Shown here: positions 7,556 to 25,300 of the stretch, piece by piece
Layout of the letters: each line of letters starts with the position of its first letter
Numbering within the stretch: position 1 is the first letter of the stretch
DNA from: Promethearchaeum syntrophicum
GTDB lineage: Archaea; Asgardarchaeota; Lokiarchaeia; Sigyniarchaeales; Promethearchaeaceae
Reading direction: 5' to 3'
DNA: 32,000 nt
Assembly: GCF_008000775.2 (NCBI RefSeq)
Contig: NZ_CP042905.2
Span: 2,610,001 to 2,642,000, forward strand
The notes under the pieces: model-generated
What the model saw: the letters and a program-made list of their open reading frames with translations, nothing else
Told to the model about the DNA's origin: nothing
The model's database searches: none
Made by a program: the position numbers and the translations under genes

Positions 7556-7581
7556 TTTTTTAATTATCTGAAATTGTTTTC

Positions 7582-7607: not shown

Positions 7608-7640
7608 TTGATTTTTAGATTACCTGAATTAAATTAATCT

Positions 7641-7901: not shown

Positions 7902-7921
7902 TTATTTCATCTCTTAAATTT

Positions 7922-8602
7922 TTATTTGAACATTTTTCCCGTTATTTTTTTAATTTCGATATAATCCAGGTTATCAATTTCAAAAAGATATTTCATTGTA
8001 GTTCTAATAGAACTATGACCGAGTAATTTTGAAATATCGTTAATGGGAAGACCATTTTTAATAAGAAAACTTGCATAAGTTCGCCTTAAACTATGGCTTC
8101 CTATATTATAACCTATAGAAAGGCATTGTCGAGCATATTTATTAATAAATCCGATAACCGAATTTTTTAAAAATGAACCATGTTTATTTGACTGGAAAAC
8201 ATATCCAGTTTTTCTATTTCCAATAGAATTTTTTATATCTCTAACTAATTCTTTCGGAATTGGAATCCTTCTATTACTTGAAAGTGTTTTAACTCGGAAA
8301 GATTTTAAATATTTAGTGGCATTCCTGGACTGAATTAAAACAAAACCGTTATACAAATTTAGTTGAGAAATTCCCATATTGCATAATTCACTAACTCTTA
8401 AACCTAATCCCATTTGTGTTTTAATCATTAAAGCATGTTTAAAATTTTGTTTTTCTGCAATTTGAAGTAATTCCTTTCTTTGATTTTGATTTAAAGCAAA
8501 TTTAATTTTTCGAATTTTATAAGAATTTTTTATTCCGGGATTAACCTGATAAACCGAAGGAATTAAATTTGGTGAGCCGGATAGATTATTTTCAGAAATC
8601 AT
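7922..8602 (-). CDS. Tyrosine recombinase / integrase (minimal, 226 aa)
   Basis: Catalytic signature: LGLRVSEL (Arg I), HSLRRT (His-x-x-Arg II) and LGHSSIRTTMKYL (His plus the Tyr nucleophile). There are only ~45 aa N-terminal to the catalytic domain. Confidence 0.85.
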   Translation of the reverse strand: MISENNLSGSPNLIPSVYQVNPGIKNSYKIRKIKFALNQNQRKELLQIAEKQNFKHALMIKTQMGLGLRVSELCNMGISQLNLYNGFVLIQSRNATKYLKSFRVKTLSSNRRIPIPKELVRDIKNSIGNRKTGYVFQSNKHGSFLKNSVIGFINKYARQCLSIGYNIGSHSLRRTYASFLIKNGLPINDISKLLGHSSIRTTMKYLFEIDNLDYIEIKKITGKMFK

Positions 8603-8760
8603 ACGTTTTCAAACCTTATCATTCGTTCTAAGGGTATTTTTTAGATATTTAAGGTAAGAGTAATCATAATTAACTCCTACAATAGTTATTATTTTTTCAT
8701 CCATAAAAAGTTTATACTAGTATATACTTTTTTAGAAACAAATATAATAATTCATAGTAA

Positions 8761-9054
8761 ATGATCGAATCCCTGAATATTCAGAAAAATCAAGGAGAAT
8801 TTTATAAATTTGATTATACTTCCATTATTTCTCAGGCTATTCAATACTTAATTAATACTTCAAAATCTCAAACAATTTCTTTTACTTGCAAATCCTTAAA
8901 GAAAAGAGTGAGAGAAGAATCAGGAATTGTATTATCTGGATGTAAAATTCGATTTGGTTTATACGAATTACTTTCAAAATATCGAATAAAAATCGATAGA
9001 AGTAGGCAAAAATACAGATATTTTTTGGATAATCCAATATTCAAAATGAACTAA
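8761..9054 (+). CDS. Hypothetical protein, 97 aa
   Basis: ATG start, divergent from the integrase. Its last 28 nt form the start of the 182-bp tandem repeat. Confidence 0.35.
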   Translation: MIESLNIQKNQGEFYKFDYTSIISQAIQYLINTSKSQTISFTCKSLKKRVREESGIVLSGCKIRFGLYELLSKYRIKIDRSRQKYRYFLDNPIFKMN

Positions 9055-9395
9055 ACAAATGAAGTAATGTTTACTAAATACATTCCGTTTTTTAAAAATA
9101 TTAGAAAAATTTCAATCGAATGTATTAAAGAATTGACTCTACATCTTTAATATTTATTTGAACAGTTTTCCCGTTATTTCATTAATGGCAAAAACATATC
9201 AATTAATTGGATAATCCAATATTCCAAATTATCGGATCAAAAGAAGTAATGTCTATTAATTACTCCCCTTTTTTTCAATAATTAGAAAAATTTTACAAAA
9301 TGTGCTAAGGAGTATAATTTTCTTCTAAAAACTTTCATATTATCAATTTTTCCACTATTTCTTTGATGGCAATGACAGGTCAATGAATCAATCAA
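9027..9395. repeat. Degenerate tandem duplication, unit ~182 bp; each unit ends with a segment resembling the integrase 3' end
   Basis: GGATAATCCAATATTC starts at 9027 and 9209. 9153-9186 matches 7921-7954 (33 nt with 3 mismatches). A weaker third copy lies around 9338-9375. Confidence 0.7.
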
Positions 9396-10109
9396 AAGAA
9401 AGTTTTTTTTTTGATGCTTGGATTTTTTATTATAAAAATTAAAATTATATCAGAAAATCAATAAAAACACCTAGACAAACAATTGAATGATGAAAAACTG
9501 AACAAAAATAACTTTTAAATGGAACAATTTTGTTCAATAATATTATAAAATCTGACTAAATTTGTTCAATTTTCGATAAAAGTATTATATTACCCTCCCC
9601 CCATCTTTGCCATTGCCATATTTTTTTGCCATATATGTGATATATTTTTCTAAATTTTCTGAAAGTGTTCAACATCCCATATCTTCTTTTTATTTAGGGG
9701 GGATGTGTGTTTTTCTCTTTATTTTGTATTCTTTTTAGGTTGGCTAACCTATTTTAAGTCATCTGACTTAATTATAGAATATTAATATGCGAAATCATCT
9801 TAACGTTTACCCATATTTTTTATTTTTTACTTTACCAGGTAAAAATTTCTGATATTTTGAATTAAATTAACTCATGTTTCGAATTCAAAATGAACGATAC
9901 GGTTCAAAGTGGAGAATGATATTTAGGGGAGATTAGTTGAGAAATAGATGATTATTTTTATCATGTTCAATAATGTTCTCTCAAATATCCAAACAAAAGA
10001 AGTAAAAGATTTATTGCATACACTAGACAACATTCAAGAAATATAATATTTAATTGGAAAAAATCCAAATAATTTATTCTTATTAGGAAAATATTCAAAA
10101 TTGAATCAT

Positions 10110-10123
10110 GGACAGCATTGTCC
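10110..10123. promoter_or_regulatory. Palindrome GGACA-gcat-TGTCC (operator-like), site 1
   Basis: Context is ATGGACAgcatTGTCCT. A related site lies 63 bp downstream. Confidence 0.35.
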
Positions 10124-10172
10124 TAAACTCCTTAAAACTCATCAGTAAGTAAATGTTTTATAATATTTTTAT

Positions 10173-10185
10173 GGACAATTTGTCC
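10173..10185. promoter_or_regulatory. Perfect 13-bp palindrome GGACAA-t-TTGTCC (operator-like), site 2
   Basis: Context is ATGGACAAtTTGTCCT. Confidence 0.35.
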
Positions 10186-10433
10186 TTTGTATGTTTTTTA
10201 AAATATTTTGATAAAAAAAGACATTCTCTAACTCATATTTTTGGCTACTATCATAGAGATCAATAGTAGAAAAAACTCAAAAACGAACAACCCCTCTCTT
10301 TTCTTTTAAAATTATATTTTATACCTGGAGTAAAAATTATAATTTTTTAGTGGATCCATTAATTTTCCAAAAATACCATATTTGGCAAAAACAAGAAAAA
10401 ACTAGGAAATCAGGGAATTACCGATTTTAGTAA

Positions 10434-10748
10434 TTAAGAGATAATTACTTTTTTTCGTAATTTCCAATTATTTTTTAATATTATTGCAGGACCAAAAACA
10501 TGAACTTCTTCTGGTTCTAATTGAACTTCAAAGCCTTCAATATCATCATGAATACTTTTCAAATAAAATGGAATCGGAGTATCCACACAATGCCTACTTG
10601 AATTACAAAAATCAATATTTGATAATAATAATTCTATATCCTGAGATACTTTTGATAATTTTTTTCTGATATTATTTCTCATTTTTGCTTCGTATTCAGG
10701 ACTTATTTTTTTTCCTTCTAAAAATTCGCGTTCGGTTTTTGATAACAT
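10434..10748 (-). CDS. Hypothetical protein (104 aa from ATG MLSKTEREFLEG...)
   Basis: AAGGTG lies 6 nt upstream of the ATG at 10748. The track start at 10757 is GTG, inside that SD. Confidence 0.45.
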   Translation of the reverse strand: MLSKTEREFLEGKKISPEYEAKMRNNIRKKLSKVSQDIELLLSNIDFCNSSRHCVDTPIPFYLKSIHDDIEGFEVQLEPEEVHVFGPAIILKNNWKLRKKVIIS

Positions 10749-10758
10749 ATTTTTCACC

Positions 10759-11112
10759 TTAAACTTCTTTCATCCATTCTGAAAGGTTTGATAAGAAATT
10801 TCCAAATACATTAACGTTTGAAAACATGTCCTTAACTTCCAGTTCTAACATTCTCATATTTGAAGTTTTATCGCCTTTTCCCCCAATTGCAATTTTCTTT
10901 AATCCCCTTAAAGTATCAATAGACATTTTGAATGGATTAATCTCATATTTACCTTTCTTTTGGAAGTGTGGTTTTATTTCTTCCGAAATTTTCTTTTTTG
11001 CTTTAATACCAGGAAGAGTATTTTTTTTCTTTGTTTGTAATCTTTCTTGTTCTAACCTTTCTCTTTCTTCCAGTTCTAATTTTGCTTTTCTTAATTTATC
11101 TGCAATATTCAT
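10759..11112 (-). CDS. Hypothetical basic coiled-coil protein (117 aa from ATG MNIADKLRK...)
   Basis: AAGGAG lies 10 nt upstream of the ATG at 11112. The stop of the upstream gene is 1 nt before this ATG. Confidence 0.45.
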   Translation of the reverse strand: MNIADKLRKAKLELEERERLEQERLQTKKKNTLPGIKAKKKISEEIKPHFQKKGKYEINPFKMSIDTLRGLKKIAIGGKGDKTSNMRMLELEVKDMFSNVNVFGNFLSNLSEWMKEV

Positions 11113-11113
11113 T

Positions 11114-11422
11114 TTAATCAATCTCCTTTTCAATTTTTTCCATTGCCTTAAAGTCTTGTTCGGAAGTTAATTTTAAAAACGGTTCTATTTCTATTGCTTT
11201 TTCAAAGAGTTTCAAAATTTGATTTAATGATTCTTTAATTTCATCATTCACTTTACTATTCACTTTACTTTCTGCTTTACTTTCAGTTGGATTATTTCTG
11301 TCTTTAATTCGTTTAATTGTTCTACTAGAAACACCTAATTTCTCGGTTGTTTCTATATATGTATGATTCTTTAGATAATCCAACACTTTCTTATCATTTT
11401 CTTGATTTATTTTGCGAGGCAT
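11114..11422 (-). CDS. Helix-turn-helix DNA-binding protein, 102 aa
   Basis: The N-terminus DYLKNHTYIETTEKLGVSSRTIKRIKDR is a typical HTH. It is the first gene of a three-gene minus-strand unit next to attR. Confidence 0.5.
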   Translation of the reverse strand: MPRKINQENDKKVLDYLKNHTYIETTEKLGVSSRTIKRIKDRNNPTESKAESKVNSKVNDEIKESLNQILKLFEKAIEIEPFLKLTSEQDFKAMEKIEKEID

Positions 11423-11450
11423 ATTTTTTTCACTAATTAATATTAAAACA

Positions 11451-11489
11451 CTTTACTTATTTAAGTATTTTGAATAATCATAAGTAAAG
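11451..11489. promoter_or_regulatory. 10-bp perfect inverted repeat CTTTACTTAT / ATAAGTAAAG in the promoter region of the HTH gene (operator candidate)
   Basis: The arms are at 11451-11460 and 11480-11489 with a 19-nt spacer. An extra AGTAAAG lies at 11494-11500. Confidence 0.35.
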
Positions 11490-11540
11490 CGAAAGTAAAG
11501 TCTTTTTGAATGGATTTTGAATGATTTGGGAATAAAGATA

Positions 11541-11653
11541 TTTGCGTGAAATTTTTAATTCAAATTTAAAGGAAATTTTTTCTTGTGATAAATATCATAA
11601 TTAAAGCCAATAAATAAGGGGGTATTAAGAATAAACCAGCAATTTCACGCAAA
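11541..11653. repeat. 13-bp perfect inverted repeat TTTGCGTGAAATT / AATTTCACGCAAA separated by 87 nt; the right arm overlaps the putative attR
   Basis: The arms are at 11541-11553 and 11641-11653. Confidence 0.7.
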
Positions 11654-11670: not shown

Positions 11671-11843
11671 GTTATCTAAATATTAAATTACAAAGGAAGA
11701 AGAAATCGAATAAAATCATATCATAAATTGATTTAAGATCAGAAATAATCAGAAAAAAATATACATAATGGGATCAAATACAGATTATAAAAATTATCAA
11801 AAATAATCCCCTTCTGGATTCAAGTAAATTTAGATTATTTTTT

Positions 11844-12428
11844 CTATTTAAGCATTCTATTACCAATTTCATTGAAAAGTTCTTCTACACCATTACTATT
11901 CAAAGCAGATGTCTTAATAAAGTAATCAATATTGAAATCGTTTTTACACTGTTCTATTTCATCTGGAGAAATTGCTATAGAATTATTTGAAACTAAATCT
12001 TCTTTTGTTCCTACTAAGAAGAATTTTACATTCTTATTCCCCCATACACCCCCTTCTTTTAAAATATCAATCCAATCATATAATCTCTTAAGAGTAGGAA
12101 GCCTAGCTAAATCAAAACATAAAACTACCCCTTCAGCACCCCGAACATAATCCTTCAATATAAACCTAAATCGTTCCTGCCCTGCAAAATCCCAAAGTAA
12201 CAAATTAATATGATTAATATTTTTCTCATCAGTTTTTTCAATTTTTTTCATGAAAAAATCTGATCCTATTGTCATTTTGGTTGAATCTACAAAGATATTA
12301 CTAACGGTTCTATGCAATAAAGTAGTTTTTCCAACTCCTCCTTCCCCAAGTATCACTATTTTTTTCTGGATGTTTCGAATAACTTTTTGATCTTCGCTCA
12401 CTGTAAGTTGATTGATATTTGATTGCAT
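11844..12428 (-). CDS. Rab/Ras-like small GTPase
   Basis: G1 GEGGVGKTT, G2 MTIGSDF, G3 WDFAGQERF, G4 GTKED (NKxD variant) and G5 TSAL. No C-terminal Cys prenylation motif. I prefer the ATG at 12428 (the track start at 12437 is TTG). Confidence 0.85.
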   Translation of the reverse strand: MQSNINQLTVSEDQKVIRNIQKKIVILGEGGVGKTTLLHRTVSNIFVDSTKMTIGSDFFMKKIEKTDEKNINHINLLLWDFAGQERFRFILKDYVRGAEGVVLCFDLARLPTLKRLYDWIDILKEGGVWGNKNVKFFLVGTKEDLVSNNSIAISPDEIEQCKNDFNIDYFIKTSALNSNGVEELFNEIGNRMLK

Positions 12429-12697
12429 TGTTATCAAGGAGATAGTTAGTAAATTGACATTTATTATAGCTTTATTGAAAAAATTCTATGAATAATTTGT
12501 AAATATTGTGAATAATTATTCGTTTTTTCTCCGTGAAATGCTTAATTTCAGAAATTTCGATAAATGAAGCATTTTCTACAAAAGTGTTAAGGATGATATT
12601 TACGTTTGAAAAATGTATAATTATTGATAGAAGTATAGAAATTAGACGGTATATCATTTTTTTATACACAAAACAAAACCTTCGGATCAAACTAAAA

Positions 12698-15600
12698 ATG
12701 AAATCTAAACATATTATGCTTTCTTATTCTAAAATATTTTTCAAATCAGCAAGTTTTCTTATAATTTTACTTGTAACCTTTTCTCAATATTCAATTTTAC
12801 ATTTTGATAATTCTAATTCAAACCAATCTTTTGTAAATAACGAAGATGATTTAACAAACATCAATAAAAACGCACCGCAATCGGCTCAAGATTTTATAGA
12901 TTTCGAGAATGCCCCATTGTTATTCCGTATTCATGAGAAAGGTTATATAGATGATAGAGTTGCTGCAAATTTATGGTATGAAGGATTCCTCCATAGCGTT
13001 GATTATATGTGTTATTTATCAATTAACAATGGGGAAGTTTGGGCACTAGAACAATTCAATGTTGTAAAAAGTTTAACAAACTTGACAGAATTTGTTGATG
13101 GAGATTTTACACGGCAACTAGTAGCTGAGTCAATAGTCCAACACCCAGAAGAAGATGTTTATGTAAAAAATCAGATAAAACTTTATCCAGATGAGGAATT
13201 TTTTGTGATGACATATATGATTTGGAGTGAAACAATTAATATAACGAGTGCAGAACTTTTTTTTTATAATGATCTGGATATTGATGAAACATTCAATGAT
13301 GATAATGCTGATTACGATCCTTCGACAGAATTAATTTACTCTTCCGATAAGTTCACTCATACATCCTTAGGGTGGATTTCAACGTATCCTATTTCTTCAT
13401 GGGATTTAGGACCCTATACTATAATAGAAGATAATGTTATAAATGATGCTTTAGGAGAAACAATCTCAGATTATGGAGATATTTCCTTAGCAACAAAATA
13501 TGAAAAGAAAAATTTCAATGAAAATGAAACTTGGGTTGTTCCCCTAATTTATGGATTTGCAACATCAGAAGCAGATCTTTATACAAAAACAGTTGATATT
13601 AAGAATCAATTTATTGATGATTTCTCAGTCTTAGATTTTACAGCAAATCTAACAGATAATCCTTCGGTAAATGCAACAATTTTAAATGGAGGCCAAAATG
13701 AATTAACACGAAACGTTAGCGTTTTTAGAAATGGAACATACCTTCAAAGCCAAGAGATTACATTATTACCAGGTGAACTTGATACTAATGTAACTTTTGA
13801 TAATCTATTACTTAATCCTGGTGAATATAATGAGATAACTGTTTTAATAAATGATATTATTAATGATTATCAGCCGAATAATGAAATTTCTCACACTTAT
13901 TTATATCAAGAAAGATTTAGAATTAATATTAAAGATCTTGATGGATTTGATGTAGAGGGATTGAATGTTTCTTTATATCATAATGTTTCTAAAGCATTGA
14001 TCCATTCAGCATTTACCGATGAATTTGGTAATGCAACTTTTGTTGATCTTCCAGAAAATAATTACACTCTAAAAGCATATGCTCCTTGGATGAATGAAAA
14101 CCATCAATTAATTTATGAAGAAAATTTTACTTACCCTGATGTGGGAGATTTTTATCAAATTCAATCCAATTTAACTACATTGATACTCCATATTATGGAT
14201 GTTGAAGATAATTCAGTAGAAAGTGCATCTATCGATATATATGAGAATTTTGAACCTGAAACTATTATATGGTCAGGATTAACTGATCAAAATGGCAATA
14301 TAACTTTTCTATTTTTAAATCAGACATATGATATTAATGTTACATACTTCAATTATGAAAAATCATTATTATTAGAACCAATATTAGATCTAAGCCTAAT
14401 AGAAAAAACTAACCGAACTCATCAAGTTTCATTAACTAATTTAACATTTCATCTTAAAAATAGAAATATTGCTAGTCCAACAAATTTAACTGGTGCAAAA
14501 CTTGAATTTTATGAAAAAGTTAATTCAACTTCATTCGGGAATTATATTGGTTTTGATTTAGTAGATTTGATTGAAAATGTAAGTATTTACTGGGATGCGC
14601 GTATAAATTATTCAATTCGAGTTATTTTTTTTGGTGGATATTGCCCAATCGGAGACCCAGAAGCGGAATCATTAAATTTTACAGAATCTCCATACAACTC
14701 ATATTATTATCTTGTTTTTAATGTGTCTATAGAGGATTATGATTATTTAACAGAAATTATTTCTTTTAATTTACCACCAATCATTTATACTTGGGAGGAT
14801 AATATAGATTTTAAATTTATGATAAATGTGTCGGGTCCTGACTATGAAGGACCAAAATATGCGGATGAGACATTTATCAGAATCCAAAACCAAAACTTTG
14901 AAACTGTTTATGATGGGAATGCCACAAATATAGATGGTCAGCTGGGAAACCATAGTTTTGTATTAAACACTTCAAGCGGAATTTTTACATCTGATAATCC
15001 TGAAACGTATTTTTTAAGAATATTCGCACAAATCGAAAGTTATGATAATCCAGCATCTATTTTACTTCCATTTAGTATTTACAATATCACCACAGATATG
15101 GATTTGCATTCTTCATCTGAAACCTTATATTGGAAAGATAATTTCACGATTTCAGCTAATTATTTTAATGCGCTAGATAACGAGAAGATAATAAAAGATG
15201 GATATGCCACTGTATCTTGGGGCCAAAATTTTATAAATTACCCCATGCAAAATCTAGGAAACGGTACATATACAATTGAGATAAATTCATCAATAGGTTC
15301 TCCAGGTAATAGCATTGTTAACGTGAAATGTTATAGAGAAAACTATAATGTACAAGAAAGGAAATTTTATTTAAATGTGATGGAAGTCCCAACTACCGTG
15401 AATGGCTCAATTTTATTTGGTTCTGGTCATTCTCAATTTGTTTCTACCCAAAATTTAACGTTAGATTATAATTTTATTGATTCTTATCGAAATATTTCAA
15501 TTCCTGATCTTTCTCCAATGTATTCGATAATTAATTCAGAAACTGATGAGCAGTATACTGGATATTTAACAACTAATGAATCTGGTTTTTATTCATTTGA

Positions 15601-16591
15601 TCCTAAATCATCCTTGTTACCAATTGGGACATATCACGGTTTAATAGATTTTAGTTTAGAAAATTATCAATCAAGTTATGCGAGTGTTCAACTTGATATA
15701 CTTCCTATACCTTTATCTTTAACACTTGAAGGGGGAACAAGTGAAGTTGAAAATGATCTTGAAATATCCCCTGATTACAATATTGAAAGAGGGGAACAGT
15801 TCTATTTTAGTTTAGATATATTAGATATTTATGATAATCCAGTTGAAAATTGTACTATTACATATATATTAAAATTCACAGAAGATAACGAAACCAAGAA
15901 AGGAGATCTTCTAACAGACAACATGGGACACTACTTTGGAAATTTTCCAGAATTATCAAGAATTGGATTATATTCTTTATCATTAACAGTTAGTAAAGCA
16001 AATTATACAGAGGAAACTTATCAATTTTATATTGATGTTGAATATGAAACCCCTATTGGTGATATTCCTCTTCCGTATTTAATTGTAGGCGCAATGATGT
16101 TATTGATAGCAATTTCTGCGGTTGCAGGATATGCGGGTATTAAGAGAATTAGAATTCCTAAATATATCAAAGATCTTACAAAACTTGAGAAAATCCTTAA
16201 AAACACAAATAATGTTCTTCCCGAGCGATATCCGACTCGGATTGAACAATTAGAGGAAAAATATGGAAATAGATGGGTCCAGATAGATTTTAAATTCCCT
16301 CTACAACCACATATTGATGATATTAAAATTTTTATCAATACATATCAAGCAATAACGGGAAAATTATTCTTGAAAGAAGAAGCAAAGCAATTTTTAGATG
16401 ATTTAGTGATATATTCTGAAGAAGAAATTAAACGTCGTCTTGAAGGAGAAAGAATTTTTGGTGAAAACCTTTCAAAATTAATGGAAATTATACTTAATTA
16501 TATCCAAATTACAAATACTCAGCACGATCTTAAAACTGATTCCAGCATAGTTAAAGATGATTTTGATCTAGAATTTGGAGATGAAAAATAA
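12698..16591 (+). CDS. Giant type-I-like surface protein: N-terminal signal/anchor, ~1090-aa sequon-rich ectodomain with carboxypeptidase-regulatory-like beta-sandwich repeats, one C-terminal TM helix and a 149-aa cytoplasmic tail
   Basis: The start MKSKHIMLSYSKIFFKSASFLIILLVTFSQYSIL is hydrophobic. I count 41 N-x-S/T sequons by hand. CarboxypepD_reg-like segments lie at about 13915-14090 and 14186-14356. The TM helix LPYLIVGAMMLLIAISAVAGYAGI (16070-16141) is followed by KRIRIPKY. Confidence 0.75.
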   Translation: MKSKHIMLSYSKIFFKSASFLIILLVTFSQYSILHFDNSNSNQSFVNNEDDLTNINKNAPQSAQDFIDFENAPLLFRIHEKGYIDDRVAANLWYEGFLHSVDYMCYLSINNGEVWALEQFNVVKSLTNLTEFVDGDFTRQLVAESIVQHPEEDVYVKNQIKLYPDEEFFVMTYMIWSETINITSAELFFYNDLDIDETFNDDNADYDPSTELIYSSDKFTHTSLGWISTYPISSWDLGPYTIIEDNVINDALGETISDYGDISLATKYEKKNFNENETWVVPLIYGFATSEADLYTKTVDIKNQFIDDFSVLDFTANLTDNPSVNATILNGGQNELTRNVSVFRNGTYLQSQEITLLPGELDTNVTFDNLLLNPGEYNEITVLINDIINDYQPNNEISHTYLYQERFRINIKDLDGFDVEGLNVSLYHNVSKALIHSAFTDEFGNATFVDLPENNYTLKAYAPWMNENHQLIYEENFTYPDVGDFYQIQSNLTTLILHIMDVEDNSVESASIDIYENFEPETIIWSGLTDQNGNITFLFLNQTYDINVTYFNYEKSLLLEPILDLSLIEKTNRTHQVSLTNLTFHLKNRNIASPTNLTGAKLEFYEKVNSTSFGNYIGFDLVDLIENVSIYWDARINYSIRVIFFGGYCPIGDPEAESLNFTESPYNSYYYLVFNVSIEDYDYLTEIISFNLPPIIYTWEDNIDFKFMINVSGPDYEGPKYADETFIRIQNQNFETVYDGNATNIDGQLGNHSFVLNTSSGIFTSDNPETYFLRIFAQIESYDNPASILLPFSIYNITTDMDLHSSSETLYWKDNFTISANYFNALDNEKIIKDGYATVSWGQNFINYPMQNLGNGTYTIEINSSIGSPGNSIVNVKCYRENYNVQERKFYLNVMEVPTTVNGSILFGSGHSQFVSTQNLTLDYNFIDSYRNISIPDLSPMYSIINSETDEQYTGYLTTNESGFYSFDPKSSLLPIGTYHGLIDFSLENYQSSYASVQLDILPIPLSLTLEGGTSEVENDLEISPDYNIERGEQFYFSLDILDIYDNPVENCTITYILKFTEDNETKKGDLLTDNMGHYFGNFPELSRIGLYSLSLTVSKANYTEETYQFYIDVEYETPIGDIPLPYLIVGAMMLLIAISAVAGYAGIKRIRIPKYIKDLTKLEKILKNTNNVLPERYPTRIEQLEEKYGNRWVQIDFKFPLQPHIDDIKIFINTYQAITGKLFLKEEAKQFLDDLVIYSEEEIKRRLEGERIFGENLSKLMEIILNYIQITNTQHDLKTDSSIVKDDFDLEFGDEK

Positions 16592-17730
16592 TGCCAATTG
16601 GAATATGTTTATGGGAGTGGGATACACGTAGTGGTGCAGAGATATTAGGAACTTGGCCAAGAGATGTTAAGTTAGAAAATAAGACTTTAATGCAATTATA
16701 TTCTCAGCATTTATATAGTGCGAAAGCCGATATTGTTTCTATGTATGTAGGATCTTTAAATGTGTTAAGTATCTGGACCGGATCAATCCACAATTACTTT
16801 TTGACAATTTTATTACACCAAGATGAAGATCCAGAGAATTATTCAGATATTATTTCTGATTCTATGTATTATTTGGTTCCTTATATCCAGAAAGATATAT
16901 ACAAAACATTATTACCTTCGATATTCCAACGTTTTAAAGAATATCCAGATACAAACCTGGAACAAAGGCGAGCTATTTTATATTCAAATGAATTAAACAG
17001 ATCAATTTTAAATCTCTTGCAAGAAGAGGGAGTTTATTATAAAGATGAATTAAAAATCTGGCTTGAAGATTCTTTGAAAAAAAAGGCATTTAATTATGAA
17101 ATGGCTATTGAAAGATTGATTCATAATGATTTAATAAAAGTTTCCTCTGTGAAAGGTGTTGAAGGAACTTATGTGTTTTTAATAAATGACATAGCTTTAC
17201 TTAGAGCACCTCCGCTTGATTTAATTCGAAATTTTCAAATAAAAGGTGATTTGAACCTAAATGATGACATACTTTCCAAAATTCGAAAGTTTTTTCAATT
17301 TTATAAACCATCAGAAAGGGACAATCTTCAGATTTTGAAATTCATGGGTGATACAAATTACTATAAAATATTAAATTTCCTCAGGAAAACAAATGCTAAT
17401 GAATCTACTTTAAAAAAACTTACAATACACGGCGTAGATAATGTCTTCTCATTGATAAATGATTTAGAAAATTTAGATATTGTTGATCATGTAAAAAATA
17501 AAAATGAAGATACAATATATTTCTTAAAATCAGATATAATTATTGATAAAATGACCCCAAAATTTATGATGCGTAGATTATATGATATGAATTATGAAGG
17601 TAAAAAAAATCCTAAGTTAATTCAGAGTTATATTAAAATTTTAAAAGAAAGTTTTTATGAAAATCAAATAAAAAAAGGTAAATTTAAAAAAATAGATGAA
17701 GGTATAGTTTTGGAGGATGTATCTTCGTGA
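16591..17730 (+). CDS. Hypothetical protein: longin-like N-terminal domain plus two winged-helix-like repeats
   Basis: The ATG overlaps the upstream TAA (TAATG), and GGAG lies 10 nt upstream. The N-terminus follows a beta-beta-alpha-beta-beta-alpha pattern (IGICLWEWD / AEILGTWP / TLMQLYSQHLYS / IVSMYVGSLNVLSIW / YFLTILLH / YSDIISDSMYYLV). wH-like segments include NYEMAIERLIHNDLIKVSSVKGVEGTYVFL and NYYKILNFLRK...LINDLENLDIVDHVKNKNEDTIYFL. Confidence 0.6.
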   Translation: MPIGICLWEWDTRSGAEILGTWPRDVKLENKTLMQLYSQHLYSAKADIVSMYVGSLNVLSIWTGSIHNYFLTILLHQDEDPENYSDIISDSMYYLVPYIQKDIYKTLLPSIFQRFKEYPDTNLEQRRAILYSNELNRSILNLLQEEGVYYKDELKIWLEDSLKKKAFNYEMAIERLIHNDLIKVSSVKGVEGTYVFLINDIALLRAPPLDLIRNFQIKGDLNLNDDILSKIRKFFQFYKPSERDNLQILKFMGDTNYYKILNFLRKTNANESTLKKLTIHGVDNVFSLINDLENLDIVDHVKNKNEDTIYFLKSDIIIDKMTPKFMMRRLYDMNYEGKKNPKLIQSYIKILKESFYENQIKKGKFKKIDEGIVLEDVSS

Positions 17731-18590
17731 TTCATGAACTTATGATTGTATCCCAAGGAGGGTTATGCATATATTCCTATGAGTTTACAGAAATGCAAGT
17801 TAATCCTCAATTGGTAGCGGGATTTACTACAGCAATTGATACATTTTCCGAATCTCTTTTAGAAAGAAAACAGAATATTGATTCTCTTCAAATGACTAGT
17901 TTAAACCTAAAAATTTCGAGATTTCTTCATGATGCATTATCGATGATTATTTTTTTTAATAAATATGATAATATTGATGTCATAAATTCAATAATGATAG
18001 ATTTACAGACTCAATTTATCGAATCCTTTGGGAATTATGATCTTGAAGATTTTTTTCAGACCTCAATTCTTAAACCCTTTGACAATGTAGCAATTCCATT
18101 ATGTAACATGCATGTTGATATTGGAATGTTAAGTGTTCAATCAACATATAAATCTAAACTATGGGAACTAATCGTAAATATAAATAATAGTAGACCTAAT
18201 GAATCTTCAAATCCTGAACAAATCAAAAAAGAATCAAATACTATTGATTATATTTGCCCAAATCTTCCAAATTGTGATATTTTAATATGGAATCTTGATT
18301 TGGAAGCTGCAGAAATGAATCAAAGCATCTTTCATAATAAACAAATTTTTATTATTGTCATTGAACCCGATTTCGATTTTATTCAGAAATATATTCCAAT
18401 AATTGAAATTTTGAAAAAAAATCATAACGAATCTCTTATGATTGGTGTAATGATGACAGAAAGTGGAACAATAACAAAGAACAATATCGAAAAATTACTT
18501 CAAATCAATATTTTTGAATTAAGTATTAATGAACCGTCAGCAAAGGAGAATCTTGCAGATATAATATATAATTGCGTTCTTGGAATATAA
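17727..18590 (+). CDS. Hypothetical protein: longin/roadblock-like N-terminal domain plus a degenerate Ras-like (pseudo-GTPase) C-terminal domain
   Basis: The GTG start overlaps the upstream TGA (GTGA), and GGAGG lies 10 nt upstream. The N-terminus reads LMIVSQGGLCIYSYEF...PQLVAGFTTAIDTFSESL. The C-terminus aligns by eye to the Ras fold: ILIWNLDLEAAE (cf WDTAGQE), LMIGVMMTES (cf LVGNKxD) and ELSINEPSAKEN (cf ETSAK..N). No intact P-loop. Confidence 0.6.
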   Translation: MIHELMIVSQGGLCIYSYEFTEMQVNPQLVAGFTTAIDTFSESLLERKQNIDSLQMTSLNLKISRFLHDALSMIIFFNKYDNIDVINSIMIDLQTQFIESFGNYDLEDFFQTSILKPFDNVAIPLCNMHVDIGMLSVQSTYKSKLWELIVNINNSRPNESSNPEQIKKESNTIDYICPNLPNCDILIWNLDLEAAEMNQSIFHNKQIFIIVIEPDFDFIQKYIPIIEILKKNHNESLMIGVMMTESGTITKNNIEKLLQINIFELSINEPSAKENLADIIYNCVLGI

Positions 18591-18609: not shown

Positions 18610-19728
18610 ATGAATAATGATTTTGAATCCAAACAAGAAATAAATAACATTTTTCTTTTAGATTTAGGTAGTTCTTTAACAAAAATAGGATTTTCATCTA
18701 ATATATATCCTAGTATAATATGTGATAGTTCTTATGGAATACCACGAATTCATGATGCAGGAAATAATTTAGAAAAAACTCAAAAAATTTATTGTGAAGA
18801 TTTAAATAATTCCACAATTTCGATAAAAAGGATAAATCTATTTACTTATTCTCAACCCAATAATTTAGAATCCATTTTTGAATTCGTTGAGCATCTATTT
18901 AATAAAATGTCCTTACCAACTAAAAACGAAGGATTAATCATTGCTTATTCAAATGAATGGTCGAATTTTTTTCTTTATCAATTACAAGCGTTTTTATTTC
19001 AGCGATTCAATTTTTCATCTATTTTACCAATTAAAACTGATTTCTTATCCCTAATCTCGCATAAAGTAAAAACCGGAGTTGTTCTTGATATTGGTCATTC
19101 TTATTCAAGAGTTATTCAATTTGATAAAGGAAAACCTCTAACAACTGCTGGATTTAAAACAAATGTTGCAGGAAAATTAATTCAAGATTATTTAATAAAA
19201 TTATATAATAATTCACATCCCTATTTACAATCACCGATTTTTGAGCCTCTAATTTCCAGTATTATTAGAGAAAAATGTTTACTTACCTTTGATATCGATA
19301 AATTACTTTCAGATCAATATTTAGATGAGATAATCTCTGAAGAAATTGAAATATCTCAGTTTAAAGAAATATTGATGTTAGGAATTGAGAAATATCTTGC
19401 CCCTGAGGTATTATTTCATCCAAAACTTGCTAATTCAAAAAATTTATCAGTTGATTCCTTAATAATTCAAAGTTTAAAAGAGTGTCATCTATCTTTACGC
19501 AGTAAAGTTTATTCAAATATTATTCTAGCTGGAGGAGGATGTGCATTTAAAAATTTTAAAGAACGACTACTTTCAATATTCTCAAAAATTCCGATGTTAG
19601 CCAATTCAAATATTTTAATTCACTTTGATCCGAGTTTAACTGTCTGGAAAGGAATGTTAGTAGCCGCTAATTCAAATTACTATGGGAAAAATGCTCAGAC
19701 ACAAAATCAATTCTTCGCTAAATTATAA
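18610..19728 (+). CDS. Divergent actin-family (Arp-like) ATPase
   Basis: LDLGSSLTKIGF (phosphate-1), GVVLDIGHSYSRVIQFDKG (phosphate-2), NVAGKLIQDYL, APEVLFHP, IILAGGGCAFKNFKERL (adenosine) and VWKGMLVAA. I prefer the ATG at 18610 with GGTG 9 nt upstream over the TTG at 18580. Confidence 0.85.
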   Translation: MNNDFESKQEINNIFLLDLGSSLTKIGFSSNIYPSIICDSSYGIPRIHDAGNNLEKTQKIYCEDLNNSTISIKRINLFTYSQPNNLESIFEFVEHLFNKMSLPTKNEGLIIAYSNEWSNFFLYQLQAFLFQRFNFSSILPIKTDFLSLISHKVKTGVVLDIGHSYSRVIQFDKGKPLTTAGFKTNVAGKLIQDYLIKLYNNSHPYLQSPIFEPLISSIIREKCLLTFDIDKLLSDQYLDEIISEEIEISQFKEILMLGIEKYLAPEVLFHPKLANSKNLSVDSLIIQSLKECHLSLRSKVYSNIILAGGGCAFKNFKERLLSIFSKIPMLANSNILIHFDPSLTVWKGMLVAANSNYYGKNAQTQNQFFAKL

Positions 19729-20279: not shown

Positions 20280-21419
20280 TCATACAGCAAATGAGAATAA
20301 AATACCTATAATGGTAAAGTAAACAATCGCGATTTCTGTAGGTACATACTTCTTCTTCTTATAAAATAGCATATTTACAATAGAAGTAACCAGAATTATC
20401 ACACCAGTGAGTATCCACATACCCGTTGTTGATAAATCAATTAAAGCATGTGGAATTTGATATAGAACTTCTGCCATGAAATATGTAAAGAAGGGTTGTC
20501 TTCCAAATGCCAGTAAATAACCAAGATTCCATTTCATTTTTTTATCAAAAAACACAAATAAAAGTAAGGATAAAATTATTACTCCAAGAGATATCAAACC
20601 AAAACTAAAAGTTGAAATTCTTTTACTAGGTTCCCAACCAGGTATTAAACCAAGTAATAAGCCCACAACCAAATTAATTGCACCCAAAATGGCCATATTT
20701 GTATATTTTTTTTTTGGAGAATGTTCTGTATTAAAAATATAATCCCCAAGAGAAGCAGCAACAACTACAACACCAGAAAGTGTAAAAAATGTACCGAAAA
20801 TCCCACCATGCCACGTTAGACTTGCATAATATCCTATCGGGGTAAAGATTAAAAGAATTTGGTATAATAACATCCAGATATAAGCCGCAATTAATCGAAA
20901 TTTCGGGTCCTTAATACATATAAACGGTAGGGCAACCAATGTTGCTAATCCTAAGGAATGAAGAACATCCCATCTGGGAATTATAAAACCTGCTTCAATT
21001 TTATATTCAAATAACACACCAAAATCAAAGGAAAATTCCACCAACATCAATAGATAACCTAAAAGTAACAATAAAACACCCTTTAATACTACCCTAAGGA
21101 TTGCATTTGATGTATTTTTTTGATCTTTCCGTTTAGTGAAGGACAACACAAAAGATAATCCCAAAATAAACATAAATGCTGGAGTTCCAATATCAAAAAG
21201 GGTCATATAAGTTGCAGTTTCATCAGGATGTTGAGTTAAAAAGAATAGAAATGATCCTTCGGAAACAAAATCTTCCCATGGTTCTACCAATGTTATACAA
21301 AGAAGTAGCATAATTAAACCACGAGCTTGATCAATCCAACGCAATCTTCGACTATCTTCCTTTATTGGTAATGTAAAGGAGATTTTTTTTTTTGGTCTCA
21401 ATTCTTCTTCAACTGTCAT
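20280..21419 (-). CDS. Polytopic membrane protein, HGSNAT-like / DUF1624-DUF5009-type acyltransferase
   Basis: RLRWIDQARGLIMLLL, then H...TLFDIGTPAFMFILGLSF, fits the family N-terminal signature. I count about 10 hydrophobic segments. Confidence 0.5.
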   Translation of the reverse strand: MTVEEELRPKKKISFTLPIKEDSRRLRWIDQARGLIMLLLCITLVEPWEDFVSEGSFLFFLTQHPDETATYMTLFDIGTPAFMFILGLSFVLSFTKRKDQKNTSNAILRVVLKGVLLLLLGYLLMLVEFSFDFGVLFEYKIEAGFIIPRWDVLHSLGLATLVALPFICIKDPKFRLIAAYIWMLLYQILLIFTPIGYYASLTWHGGIFGTFFTLSGVVVVAASLGDYIFNTEHSPKKKYTNMAILGAINLVVGLLLGLIPGWEPSKRISTFSFGLISLGVIILSLLLFVFFDKKMKWNLGYLLAFGRQPFFTYFMAEVLYQIPHALIDLSTTGMWILTGVIILVTSIVNMLFYKKKKYVPTEIAIVYFTIIGILFSFAV

Positions 21420-22241: not shown

Positions 22242-23435
22242 ATGGATGAGGATATATTTGAAAAAATACTAAGAACTGAATCAGTTTTCAAAGATCAAGC
22301 CACTTTGGGACAAGCTTGGGTACCGAAGAAAAATCAAAAACTTCTCGCTCGAGATTCAGAAATTAAGAAACTCACAGCAATTCATCGTCCAATTATCGAT
22401 ACTGAAGGTTCCTATTCTGTTAATACTCTTGTTTTAGGAATTGGTGGAATAGGAAAGACATTAACTGTTCGTTTTTTTGGGAGAAGATTTCGCGAAGCAG
22501 TTCTCAAACGGGATATTAAACTTACGATTGAATACTACGATTGTTTACAACATCGGACTAAAAGTTCAATATTGAGAAATATTTCTGAAAGATTACATTA
22601 TAGCGCAGGTCATGGGTATTCCGATAATGAGATAATGGAACAAATTTTGAAAGAACTGAGAAAACGTGAAGAATCTCTTTTAATTATTTTAGATGAAGTT
22701 CATAATTTGTCTTCAGATGATATTCTTGCTTTATTTAATGCATCAATTGGTTTTGGAGAAGCCAATACTCGATTTTGTATCATCGCGATTTCAAGACCTA
22801 CAGACTGGTACAAAGTAGACAATGAAAAAATTTCAAGCAGAACTCAAGATATTCTTAGAATGGAACAATATTCTAAAGATGAAGCTATGGAGATTATGAA
22901 ATATAGAAGGAATTTGGCTTTTCGTGAAGGAGTTTTGGAAGATGATAACTTAGAATTAATTACCGATATAGTTACAGAAAATAAAAATATGAGAATTGGA
23001 ATAGATATGATGAGAGCTTGTGGGATTCGGGCAGACGAACATGGGTTATCATCAATTAATAGTGAGATGATTTTAGAATCTCGAAATTTGATAAATCCAA
23101 CCTTTCGCGCAGATGTAATTGATAATTTACGCCTTCATGAACAAGTTGCACTATGGTCTGTAGCAAAATCATTGCTTAATAGTGGAGAACCTTATACTAA
23201 AGTTGAAGAAACATACGAAATCTATCAAATGTTATGTGAGGATCTAAAAATTAAACCACACGTGAGTATGAGTTTTAGAAAATACATTCGCAATCTAGCA
23301 GATGTAAAAGCGATTCATAAAGATTATTTAAATCCAACGATAGAAAAAAAAGGACGCCAATTAGAAATTAAATTGACTGATATTAGTGCAGATAAGTTAT
23401 GTGAATATTTTGAAAAGAATATTCCTCATGAATAA
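22242..23435 (+). CDS. cdc6: Orc1/Cdc6 replication initiator (AAA+ with C-terminal winged helix)
   Basis: Walker A LGIGGIGKTLTV and Walker B LLIILDEVHNL. Overall length and layout are typical of archaeal Orc1/Cdc6. Confidence 0.85.
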   Translation: MDEDIFEKILRTESVFKDQATLGQAWVPKKNQKLLARDSEIKKLTAIHRPIIDTEGSYSVNTLVLGIGGIGKTLTVRFFGRRFREAVLKRDIKLTIEYYDCLQHRTKSSILRNISERLHYSAGHGYSDNEIMEQILKELRKREESLLIILDEVHNLSSDDILALFNASIGFGEANTRFCIIAISRPTDWYKVDNEKISSRTQDILRMEQYSKDEAMEIMKYRRNLAFREGVLEDDNLELITDIVTENKNMRIGIDMMRACGIRADEHGLSSINSEMILESRNLINPTFRADVIDNLRLHEQVALWSVAKSLLNSGEPYTKVEETYEIYQMLCEDLKIKPHVSMSFRKYIRNLADVKAIHKDYLNPTIEKKGRQLEIKLTDISADKLCEYFEKNIPHE

Positions 23436-23455
23436 GTCAAAATAAAGAATGATTT

Positions 23456-24451
23456 TTATCGATCTTTTTTTCCTGTTAAAGGATTAGTATCGGGATCAGC
23501 AAAATAATCAAAATCATAATGGATTTGATTAATACGAATAAGTTCGGTTAGCATCTGGATCACTGCTTGCATATTAGGACGATCTGCGGGTTCAAATTGC
23601 GTTAATCGCTCAACAATTTCATTATAACTTTCTGGTAAGTACCAATTGATTTCTTTAGGATGTAGAACCCAAGAGTCCTTATCTAAGAGTTCTGAATCTT
23701 CTCGCATGATCCCGCCTGTAAAAACAAAGTACATCAAATGGGCAAGATAATAAATATCAGAAGCTGCTACAGGTATGTACCCAAAACGTACCTCGGGAGG
23801 AGCCCCCTTTTGAGTGATTGGGATATCTCGTAGCATTTCATCAGACATAAAAGGTTTAGGAGTATATTGAATCCAATCAGGCCCAACATGCTTAGAAATG
23901 CCCCAATCAATTAGGACTGGAATGAATTCTCCATGTTCTTTTCCCTTTTGAATGATTATATTTTCTACAGAAACATCCCTATGGACAATATTTTCTTTGG
24001 TGTGGCAATAATCTAATAATTTTGCAATAGGGATGAAAATTTCTCTAACCATACTCGCAAGGTCGAGATGCTTCATTCCTCGGCTTTTTTGAATAAACTC
24101 CAAATAAAAATCTAAAAAAGTCATACCTTCAATGTAATTCAGAACAATATAATACTCTGGAGTTTGATATTTAATTTTTTTTTCATAATGTAAAACTTTC
24201 ACACAATTATAACCAGACCGAGCCTGAGCTTGAGTATTTAAAATCTCATTTTCCCAATACTCCTCACAATCATTACTCCTTGTATATTTATCATAAAATT
24301 GTTTATAAAGAAAATCTTTTATTGCAACTTTTTTCTTAGTTTCACGCTCAATTGCCAAATAAACAGTTGATAGTCCTCCTTTACCTAAAACTTTTTGAAC
24401 ATCAAAAATAATTTTGTCAATTTCTATAGGCTTTCCAACCGTTATTGGCAT
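23456..24451 (-). CDS. Hanks-type Ser/Thr protein kinase
   Basis: GKGGLSTVY...VAIKDF, HRDVSVENIII, DWG (DFG variant), APPE and ...PADRP. AAGGAG lies 9 nt upstream of the ATG. Confidence 0.85.
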   Translation of the reverse strand: MPITVGKPIEIDKIIFDVQKVLGKGGLSTVYLAIERETKKKVAIKDFLYKQFYDKYTRSNDCEEYWENEILNTQAQARSGYNCVKVLHYEKKIKYQTPEYYIVLNYIEGMTFLDFYLEFIQKSRGMKHLDLASMVREIFIPIAKLLDYCHTKENIVHRDVSVENIIIQKGKEHGEFIPVLIDWGISKHVGPDWIQYTPKPFMSDEMLRDIPITQKGAPPEVRFGYIPVAASDIYYLAHLMYFVFTGGIMREDSELLDKDSWVLHPKEINWYLPESYNEIVERLTQFEPADRPNMQAVIQMLTELIRINQIHYDFDYFADPDTNPLTGKKDR

Positions 24452-24488
24452 ATAGTTCTACTCCTTAATATAAAAAGACAAATTATAC

Positions 24489-25214
24489 TTAATTATAATC
24501 CCATTCCCCTCTACAATTCTTGCAATAGTATTTTTTTGCGTATTTTTTAATTGGTGCATAGGAAATAATCTTATTTTTATTCTGTTGCTCTTGGAAGTGT
24601 TGTTCTCCACAATGAGGACATTTAAGAACTCCATCTTCAGGATATGGGATAGATTTTATTGTTCCGTGTTCAACTTTATCGGGAATTTTCTTTTGTGAAA
24701 TTTTTTCAACTGGTCTTTTTTCCAATATGTCCGATGGCTTTCTTGGAATGATTTTTTCTGGCTCAGAAACAAAAGATTTTCTAGGACGATCTGGAAATTT
24801 CTCCTTTTTTTCCAATTCGGCTTTGGGAGTACCAGAATAATCCTTTCCTAATTTTCCCAGAATAATCTCAATTTTAGATTCTATTGATGCATTCTGTTGA
24901 CCAAGATTAAACATTCCTTTTTTCAATTGTTCCATTAGTTTTTCAGGGCTTAATGGTTTTTTCGTTAATTCTTCAATTTTGTTTTTTAATGACTCATTTT
25001 CTTCTAATGATTTTTTATATCTCTCTTTTTGCTCTCTCAATTCATCAGATAAATCAGGGTATGTAGGAATTTTTGGTTCTTTTTCTAATTTTTCAATCTT
25101 CTCTTTGAGTACGGTAATTTCCGACATAAATTTTTTAACTTGATCTCGAAGTGCGTCTTTTACTTGGGTGAGCTGGGCTAGTTCGGTTTCTTTAATTTTT
25201 ATTAAATCTTCCAT
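24489..25214 (-). CDS. Coiled-coil protein with a C-terminal zinc ribbon
   Basis: The N-terminal ~100 aa are heptad-rich. The C-terminus has CPHCGEQHF...CKNCRGEW. It ends 37 nt upstream of the kinase gene on the same strand. Confidence 0.6.
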   Translation of the reverse strand: MEDLIKIKETELAQLTQVKDALRDQVKKFMSEITVLKEKIEKLEKEPKIPTYPDLSDELREQKERYKKSLEENESLKNKIEELTKKPLSPEKLMEQLKKGMFNLGQQNASIESKIEIILGKLGKDYSGTPKAELEKKEKFPDRPRKSFVSEPEKIIPRKPSDILEKRPVEKISQKKIPDKVEHGTIKSIPYPEDGVLKCPHCGEQHFQEQQNKNKIISYAPIKKYAKKYYCKNCRGEWDYN

Positions 25215-25300
25215 ATATAATTGACTCCCTATAAAATTTTATATATAATACTTAAATTTGGGACTGAATAAGTTATATATTTTTGCAGATTAAATAAAAA

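Follow-up and report, generated by a model that had tools for sequence, protein, structure and literature searches.

A conserved four-gene Asgard operon places a longin protein and a predicted longin-pseudoGTPase between a giant surface glycoprotein and a divergent actin

Two adjacent open reading frames (ORFs) of Promethearchaeum syntrophicum, here called A and B, lie in a conserved four-gene operon that begins with the gene for a giant surface glycoprotein and ends with the gene for a divergent actin homologue. The operon is part of a stretch of 32,000 nucleotides (nt) (contig NZ_CP042905.2, positions 2,610,001 to 2,642,000 of the forward strand; GC content about 27%), hereafter the window, whose numbering is used below unless another locus is named. 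We propose, at a probability of roughly one half, that A and B act as a tail-bound longin adaptor that couples the giant glycoprotein to a dedicated actin-like protein, through physical contacts that we infer. Judged by its sequence, B is a catalytically dead pseudoGTPase derived from Asgard fusions of a longin domain with an Arf/Rag-like GTPase, and the A/B pair is not a dedicated regulator of the Ras gene encoded nearby. An initial annotation had placed the two ORFs at 16591-18590, exactly where they are found (A, 16591-17730; B, 17727-18590), and had compared them with heterodimeric longin complexes that act as guanine-nucleotide exchange factors (GEFs) or GTPase-activating proteins (GAPs); it overlooked the conserved neighbours, the giant surface protein and the actin homologue, which travel with A and B. 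The genes of the operon are as follows.

12698..16591, plus strand: giant type-I surface glycoprotein, first operon gene, about 1,300 amino acids (aa), with CarboxypepD_reg and a start homologous to that in locus L083
16591..17730, plus strand: ORF A, longin domain and two winged helices, 379 aa, from the ORF list
17727..18590, plus strand: ORF B, longin domain and predicted pseudoGTPase domain, 287 aa, GTG start overlapping the TGA of A (GTGA, 4 nt)
18610..19728, plus strand: divergent actin-family protein resembling actin-related proteins (ARPs), last operon gene, 372 aa from ATG 18610

The ATG of A shares 1 nt with the TAA of the giant gene, A and B overlap by 4 nt, and the actin gene starts 19 nt past the B stop, behind a GGGTGA ribosome-binding site. 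The same four genes stand in the same order in 11 distinct loci (the window, L001/2, L003/4, L007-L010, L083, L086/7, L088 and L089), across which identity falls to about 43% for A and about 22% for B. In all 11, A and B adjoin, and the actin gene lies directly 3' of B in every one. The genes 5' of the giant gene differ per lineage (FGGY kinase, DHH, toxin-antitoxin, APH kinase), and synteny between the window and L083, a relative 84% identical, is kept in the downstream block and not on the upstream side. The A proteins of cassette loci group together in a neighbour-joining tree, with no resolved clade under midpoint rooting. Pairing of A with B is plausible, judging from the overlap of their genes and their co-occurrence. 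Because A and B sit in this conserved operon between a giant glycoprotein and a divergent actin, they look like surface-to-cytoskeleton adaptors, not Ras regulators.

The frame of the giant gene, locus tag DSAG12_02896, is open from GTG 12533 (12533-16591, 1,352 codons). Its probable start is ATG 12698 (MKSKHIM..., with a hydrophobic N-terminus), which aligns with the gene start in L083. The ectodomain has CarboxypepD_reg (7e-10)/Ig-like character and contains 41 N-x-S/T sequons for N-glycosylation, compared with 16.7+-3.6 in shuffled sequences. It is followed by a single membrane helix and a tail.

16064..16120, plus strand: single C-terminal transmembrane helix of the giant protein, aa 1178-1196 counted from 12533, by hydropathy scan
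16121..16588, plus strand: 156-aa cytoplasmic tail of the giant protein, aa 1197-1352 counted from 12533, whose juxtamembrane part bears a conserved RIPxYIK motif, by cross-locus tail alignment

In L083 (4872-8865) the giant gene, a single ORF in the window, is called as two ORFs (412 + 882 aa), which reflects either a frameshift/pseudogene or an assembly error.

A pattern scan of GTDB genomes found 222 loci encoding A, in records of Promethearchaeia and of Hermod-, Hod- and Odinarchaeota, and we analyzed the gene neighbourhoods of 76 retrieved loci together with others that were fetched. A same-strand ORF, a homologous giant gene, lies 5' of A for 90 of 92 distinct A genes, the two exceptions being at contig ends, and the gap between the giant gene and A is mostly -1 (45), 0 (19) or +2 (10) nt. 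Hydropathy scans and alignments revealed a C-terminal transmembrane helix and a homologous tail in 78 of the 79 upstream proteins of usable length; the homology of the tails between loci was seen both with phmmer (80 ORFs) and by alignment. The median tail is 90 aa long, and the tails of the cassette lineage measure 156-169 aa. In five genes from three metagenome-assembled genomes (MAGs), ectodomain, transmembrane helix, tail and A are encoded in one frame, with a tail of about 95 aa and with Lys or Thr in place of A's initiator Met (…KPIGLILMKWDERIGTEI…). These in-frame giant-A fusions are located as follows.

L053, 1-2133
L067, 2-3652
L073, 2-2995
L073, 3155-11092
L078, 2-2800

Sequences from MAGs could in principle be artefacts. 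That explanation is disfavoured by the recurrence of the fusions (two in each of two MAGs), by the replaced Met and by their monophyly, as they form one clade of the A family. In our view no other finding points as strongly to a role of A at the receptor tail as this in-frame joining of tail and A.

Two giant/A pairs stand in tandem in L006, L013, L018, L020, L023, L035, L036, L041, L049, L061, L063 and L079, and the ectodomains in such arrays differ in their adhesin-like domains (Laminin_G_3, Pentaxin, CarboxypepD_reg, Big_1). This suggests that the giant proteins are a diversifying surface family with a constant cytoplasmic partner. Two further loci, L025 (DATKTW010000037.1) and L064 (CAZOBD010000420.1), carry typical Asgard A-family genes yet are titled as bacterial MAGs (Nanopelagicaceae and Hyphomicrobiales); these contigs are probably mis-binned.

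ORF A is identical to QEE17065.1 (DSAG12_02897) of P. syntrophicum MK-D1, annotated as hypothetical, and all source-named homologues of A and B carry the same label. No family matched A or B at E<=1 in a Pfam scan, and an NCBIfam scan of both was also empty. We give the fold of A from an AlphaFold2 (AF2) model built on 44 homologues, with a predicted local distance difference test score (pLDDT) of 86 and a predicted template-modelling score (pTM) of 0.80. Residues 4-120 follow the order β-β-α-β-β-β-α-α (strands E4-11 and E15-22, helix H30-43, strands E48-53, E56-62 and E69-76, helices H81-100 and H105-120), which is the longin order, and there is no N-terminal helix, the feature that distinguishes longin from roadblock and profilin. 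The two winged-helix (WH) units that the initial annotation had expected behind the longin domain are present in the model, with a short helical linker between them and helices at the C-terminus.

16591..16950, plus strand: longin domain of A, aa 1-120, by AF2 order (pLDDT 76-92 over blocks) and Foldseek longin matches
16612..16659, plus strand: β1-β2 hairpin motif of A, aa 8-23, WEWDTRSGAEILGTWP, by family alignment
16957..17208, plus strand: winged helix 1 of A (WH1), aa 123-206, acidic, by AF2 elements and charge count
17314..17553, plus strand: winged helix 2 of A (WH2), aa 242-321, acidic, by AF2, a weak profile match and charge count

Foldseek, a check that the initial annotation had itself proposed, returned folds related to longins for A and to small GTPases for B. 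The longin domain of A matched Ykt6, Sec22b, VAMP7 and Lst4 at a probability of at least 0.99. The top-ranking PDB chains were those of SEAC/GATOR1 (9h4q_T at 4.5e-4, 8adl_S, 9v0j_A, 7t3a_C), and below them came Fuzzy, C9orf72, classical longin domains, roadblocks and some winged helix-turn-helix (wHTH) regulators. In the model, the architecture of A most resembles that of NPRL2-type subunits. We regard this as resemblance, not membership, because the E-values against GATOR1/SEACIT chains are marginal (4.5e-4 to 1e-3) and the whole-chain TM-scores are about 0.2. The Foldseek output carries no chain names, so the match does not tell NPRL2 from NPRL3. For A, sequence and profile searches of the PDB turned up nothing beyond a weak wHTH match between WH2 and PH1932, an ArsR-like protein (E 0.026), and no match to GATOR1, folliculin or C9orf72-SMCR8. 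Across 97 A-family members, both winged helices and their putative recognition helices are net acidic (median net charge -1 for WH1, -2 for its putative recognition helix and -4 for WH2), and the recognition-helix positions are poorly conserved. The acidic character of these domains fits protein binding rather than DNA binding.

The A family is strongly conserved, with 63 positions at 95% identity or more. The hairpin is near-invariant (W10 in 97/97, D11 in 84/97, R13 in 89/97, G15 in 92/97 and P23 in 97/97), with the consensus M-P-[VI]-G-…-W10-D-x-R13-x-G15-…-P23. Its W-D-x3-G spacing equals that of W33-D34…G38-P39 in C9orf72 numbering (PMC12290439). A GP motif before β2 and a catalytic arginine finger have been described for longin GAP complexes (PMC12290439). 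In A, G15 is followed by [A/T]16 in place of the GP proline. The β4-β5 loop of the family (TG[PS]xxx) contains no arginine, and the conserved R13 lies in the β1-β2 loop. B has a turn with a plain GG.

ORF B consists of two halves, with remnants of the GTPase motifs in the second.

17727..18101, plus strand: longin-type N-domain of B, aa 1-125, with the motif GGLCIYSYEF...NPQLVAGFTTAIDTFS, by homology to N-domains that pass Pfam Fuz_longin_1
18108..18587, plus strand: degenerate Arf/Ras-like G domain of B, aa 128-287, by Foldseek and alignment with intact relatives
18123..18155, plus strand: G1/P-loop remnant, aa 133-143, GMLSVQSTYKS, glycines replaced and K142 kept
18288..18305, plus strand: G3/switch II remnant, aa 188-193, WNLDLE vs WDxxGQ, by alignment with intact relatives
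18453..18464, plus strand: G4 remnant, aa 243-246, MTES vs NKQD, by alignment with intact relatives

Residues 128-287 were modelled at a pLDDT of about 80 with the order β1-α1-β2-β3-α2-β4-α3-β5-α4-β6-α5, that of Ras. This half matched 279 PDB chains at E<=1e-3 in Foldseek; among the best 50 listed, nearly all are small GTPases (RhoE, Sec4, Rac, Rab5), with TM-scores on the target of 0.53-0.70 and about 10% identity. The degenerate Ras-like domain that the initial annotation had aligned by eye is thus borne out by the fold, while PDB sequence and profile searches gave no match for B.

A profile of B, searched against 1.84 billion representative proteins, found 87 proteins. Among them are the full-length relatives P0090, P0095, P0098, P0103, P0105, P0108 and P0111 (280-330 aa; E 3e-13 to 9e-6), aligned over positions 1-283 or more for P0090 (3e-13), P0095 (9e-8), P0098 (3e-7) and P0105 (2e-6); some other matches share only the N-domain. 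All seven have intact G1, G4 and G5, and G3 is intact except in P0090 and P0108. P0090, P0095, P0098 and P0105 score 22-80 bits with Pfam Arf, and 40-80 in all but P0090, and the intact relatives bear domains of the Arf/Ras/Roc type, not SRP54. Since the full-length relatives are intact longin + Arf-like GTPase fusions, B appears to be a pseudoGTPase offshoot of the fusion family, and because it descends from GTPases we read it as a former switch, not as a regulator that gained a Ras-like domain. Pfam longin models were matched by several N-domain-only and several full-length relatives, two of which exceed the gathering score of Fuz_longin_1 (cut-off 26.1; P0105 at 34.9 bits and P0099 at 28.9 bits), and Robl_LC7 was matched by one relative only, weakly. 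The models for sigma-adaptin (Clat_adaptor_s) and SRPRB came just under threshold. By this transitive homology only, the N-half of B would be a longin domain, as the initial annotation had suggested.

In G1, intact relatives have GxxGVGK[ST] and B has S136-V-Q-S-T-Y-K142-S, with both glycines replaced and a Tyr at the residue before the lysine (K-1). G3 reads W188-N-L-D-L-E in place of WDxxGQ, and G4 reads M243-T-E-S in place of NKQD. The earlier view that G1, G3 and G4 are lost therefore holds for G3 and G4 but not wholly for G1, as the Walker lysine K142 is kept. The SAK (271-273) taken earlier for a G5-like motif is five residues off; the S-A of intact relatives aligns to S266-I267, and SAK opens helix α5. 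Every cassette B has degenerate G1, G3 and G4, with Tyr, Leu or Ile at K-1. A P-loop without its glycines, a bulky K-1 residue and the missing NKxD should preclude guanine-nucleotide binding, so we predict that B has lost GTP binding and hydrolysis and read its former pocket as a likely binding surface. That pocket probably still does something, because the residues around it (G133, S136, Q138, S139, K142, W146, W188, N189 and E193) are invariant in close homologues. Three of them, S136, Q138 and S139, are invariant in close homologues (A1/A2) and variable across all cassette loci (L088, L086).

P0090 (L084, 8001-8903) is the closest semi-intact relative of B, with intact G1 and G4 and a degenerate G3 (FDLNT vs WDxxGQ), and it may be an evolutionary intermediate. 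Its neighbours are JAB and ThiF of a ubiquitin-like system, with no cassette, and gave no clue to the origin of B. P0093, P0094 and P0100 combine the B-type longin N-domain with multi-pass membrane domains, and P0096 combines it with a prenyltransferase alpha-alpha toroid domain (PF00432 5e-30).

The actin of the cassette matches PF00022 at 2e-27 with only 96 bits, and a full-length match to eukaryotic actins scores about 91 bits. From these comparisons it is full length but very divergent, and it counts as ARP-like, not as a Lokiactin, in the terminology of Rodrigues-Oliveira et al.

Beside one A subfamily, in 11 loci, lies an orthologous longin-GTPase of about 346 aa, 8-120 nt from the 3' end of A (L016-18, L028, L050/L076, L054, L057, L059, L075, L077, L080, L082). 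An N-extension of 120 aa that starts with MLRQ[VI]YI… precedes its intact Arf-like domain (Pfam Arf 66-73 bits), and a helical tail follows. In L050, for example, the A gene lies at 15657-16769 and the longin-GTPase gene at 16811-17851. Its gene is convergent with A in 9 of the 11 loci and co-directional in the other 2, and it flanks the giant gene in two more loci; single-domain GTPases in these loci are 2.6-8 kb away. An A-type protein beside a longin-GTPase is thus a recurring theme, of which the window cassette is the version with a dead GTPase and an actin. Because other Asgards encode the A-type partner beside an intact longin-GTPase, the ancestral version was probably switchable, and the window version would be hard-wired.

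Under the adaptor model, A would dock onto the cytoplasmic tail of the giant protein and may pair with B through their longin domains, by analogy with eukaryotic longin heterodimers. The former G domain of B, with no nucleotide cycling, would serve as a fixed interaction module, and B would join the tail complex to the dedicated actin-like protein, so that the cytoskeleton may be anchored or nucleated below the surface protein. Several observations weigh against this model. Residues 1-125 of B were modelled poorly (pLDDT about 50, with β3/β4 not formed). The longin domains of A and B have no detectable homology to each other (profile against profile, hhalign probability 0.7%), which, at the level of sequence, is compatible with heterodimerization and gives no support for it. 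Most A-family loci have neither a B nor an actin gene, so the actin link belongs to one lineage only and the core job of A needs no actin. Finally, R13 of A is retained even where the partner G domain is dead, a hint that other GTPases might still be targets of A in trans.

This last point belongs to the model of the initial annotation, that an A-B longin heterodimer acts in trans as a GAP or GEF for free small GTPases, with the divergently encoded Ras/Rab-like protein as an example of a client; analogues of such a heterodimer would be GATOR1, FLCN-FNIP and C9orf72-SMCR8. The client gene is real.

11844-12437, minus strand: Ras-family GTPase gene, PF00071 2e-36, WP_147663982.1

It lies 4.1 kb from A, on the far side of the giant gene, within a segment of 820 bp (11757-12576) in place of which L083 has 32 bp. 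The flanks of the segment align with L083 over 124 bp on one side and over the 5' region of the giant gene on the other, and by this alignment the promoter region of the giant gene has undergone a recent indel the size of a gene. As it is missing from L083, the Ras gene is a lineage-specific insertion or deletion and not a conserved partner. In addition, upstream DNA could be read in five other cassette loci, and a GTPase precedes the giant gene in none of them (0/5). On the indel and the synteny we reject the Ras gene as the client of A and B, and that part of the earlier proposal is not supported. The broader GEF/GAP analogy keeps the best whole-chain folds of A (GATOR1/SEACIT, Fuzzy, C9orf72), a W-D-x-R-x-G hairpin spaced like the essential WD/GP region of C9orf72, an R13 that persists in cassettes with a dead B, and the many small GTPases encoded by MK-D1, the Ras neighbour among those catalogued. 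Against these stand the marginal fold scores, the missing GP proline and β4-β5 arginine of A and the lack of any Pfam NPR2, NPR3, folliculin or DENN signal in A and B; action in trans also leaves the strict linkage to giant surface proteins or to actin unexplained. We consider it an unlikely function for the pair.

In another reading A, with B or a live longin-GTPase, takes the giant tail as cargo for insertion, trafficking or membrane placement, as a minimal Arf, longin-fold adaptor and cargo-tail system or an analogue of SR-alpha/SR-beta, with actin serving for positioning only. The strict coupling of A to giant genes and the tail-A fusions agree with it, as do the matches of B relatives to sigma-adaptin and SRPRB, the Arf-like nature of the live partner GTPase, and the fact that each paralogous giant gene, often in tandem, has its own copy of A, as expected of a one-to-one chaperone or adaptor. 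However, permanent in-frame fusion to its cargo would be unusual in a recycling sorting factor, the adaptin and SRPRB matches are sub-threshold, and coat-like or translocon genes were not linked in the loci that were read. The data do not tell sorting from anchoring, and we hold the sorting role to be improbable, if worth bearing in mind. Far less probable still is that A is a transcription regulator, with a sensor-like N-domain and two wHTH units, that relays signals from the surface protein to gene expression with B as an accessory. Foldseek matched A to CodY, the Phr heat-shock regulator and CadC, and WH2 has its weak ArsR-like match, but longin-type folds rank above wHTH, the winged helices and above all their recognition helices are acidic with poorly conserved helix positions, and an A fused to a membrane tail would be kept at the membrane. 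Weighing these readings, we prefer the coupling of the giant glycoprotein to the actin-like protein by A and B.

Among the closest known systems are the published Asgard fusions of a longin with an Arf/Rag-like GTPase, the 'LG' architecture (Tran et al. 2024, PMC10933270; Liu et al. 2020, 10.1101/2020.10.19.343400). Like these, B has an N-terminal longin followed by a C-terminal small G domain and full-length homology to intact members; it differs, together with all its cassette orthologues, in having lost G1 (except the Lys), G3 and G4. It is also locked into an operon, whereas Tran et al. state that the GTPase genes of MK-D1 generally share no operon with genes for longin or roadblock proteins (PMC10933270). 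Longin, small-GTPase and actin genes of eukaryotic type are abundant in Asgards, and almost none has a known partner because they are usually scattered over the genome (PMC10933270). The tables of Tran et al. list the Ras neighbour WP_147663982.1 as a plain 'G' protein, and B is not in the MK-D1 GTPase catalogue of their supplement (PMC10933270); their survey presumably missed the cassette because B is no longer GTPase-like by sequence. Asgard 'NPRL2-like longins' (PMC10933270; 10.1101/2020.10.19.343400) and FLCN/SMCR8-type Asgard longins with GP and Arg motifs (PMC12290439) have also been published. Searches of the literature returned no papers on these locus tags and accessions or on an Asgard pseudoGTPase, and in the searchable literature we found no description of a pseudoGTPase branch of the longin-GTPase fusion family, of the A family as an obligatory partner of giant single-pass surface proteins, or of a four-gene operon ending in an ARP.

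Like GATOR1 NPRL2-NPRL3, FLCN-FNIP and C9orf72-SMCR8, the cassette encodes two different longin-bearing subunits together. A is NPRL2-sized, with a longin followed by domains of the winged-helix type as in GATOR1, and it shares its hairpin spacing with C9orf72. The cassette proteins differ from the longin GAP complexes in lacking sequence membership, the GP motif (G-A/T in A), an arginine at the NPRL2/FLCN-type position and a DENN domain; the partner B bears a dead G domain instead of a DENN or C-terminal domain, and the linked genes are those of a surface protein and an actin instead of Rag or TOR components. The likeness to Rag-Ragulator, MglB and SR-alpha proposed in the initial annotation did not hold. 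In A the domain opens with a strand at residue 4 and closes with two helices, which is not the α-β-β-α-β-β-β order of roadblock/MglB/Ragulator, and relatives of B carry an Arf/Ras/Roc-type domain rather than an SRP54-type NG domain, with B itself folding like Rho, Rab and Ras.

In Myxococcus, MglA-MglB acts with MreB at gliding 'focal adhesions', where a Ras-like module and its partner from the roadblock/longin superfamily link an envelope-spanning adhesion machine to an actin homologue. The likeness to the cassette is conceptual only, with no homology at the family level: MglB is a roadblock homodimer and MglA a live switch, and neither a giant single-pass glycoprotein nor a gene fusion is known there. 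The pseudoGTPase AAGAB on the sigma-adaptin longin fold (PDB 9ddt, among the Foldseek matches of A) likewise combines a G fold devoid of nucleotide motifs with a longin-fold partner, and CENP-M and p190RhoGAP are further pseudoGTPase-domain scaffolds. The origin of such scaffolds is independent; in B, the pseudoG domain forms one protein with its longin and derives from archaeal GTPases of the Arf-like kind.

Elsewhere in the window, positions 1-11633 have no similarity to the region 5' of the cassette in L083. This region contains a tyrosine-recombinase gene of the Phage_integrase family (7922-8602), a DUF2695 gene, a 1,013-aa ORF without a Pfam match and many small hypothetical ORFs, and it possibly represents an integrated mobile element or else a variable island; no tRNA genes were found in the window. 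A weak C9orf72-like Pfam match (E 0.048) of the small ORF at 11114-11422 was treated as noise. Downstream of the operon, 20280-21419 on the minus strand encodes a multi-pass HGSNAT-like membrane acyltransferase, and for 22242-29814 synteny with L083 points to Cdc6/Orc1, a Ser/Thr kinase, a PAS histidine kinase/response-regulator hybrid and NAD synthase.

One operon of cultured MK-D1 thus unites a giant glycoprotein with a longin and winged-helix protein, a longin protein derived from a GTPase, and an actin paralogue, which yields a testable four-protein hypothesis. It bears on the connection of the Asgard surface to the cytoskeleton, on the role of one Asgard ARP and on the use of longin-GTPases before eukaryotic endomembranes, and the giant/A pairing, with its 222 loci, tandem arrays and fusions, is a large Asgard-specific family pair. 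A more speculative and rather doubtful extension is that the giant/A module, which some Asgards combine with a live longin-Arf-like GTPase and the Promethearchaeum lineage with a dead one and a private actin paralogue, serves as an archaeal receptor-to-cytoskeleton coupling. In it, A would be a C9orf72/NPRL2-like longin subunit on the receptor tail that controls the fused GTPase or is controlled by it, and as output the ARP would be assembled or anchored locally beneath a specific surface glycoprotein. If this were true, the module would be a prokaryotic counterpart of eukaryotic signalling through adhesion receptors, small GTPases and Arp/actin, and one enigmatic Asgard ARP would gain a concrete function.

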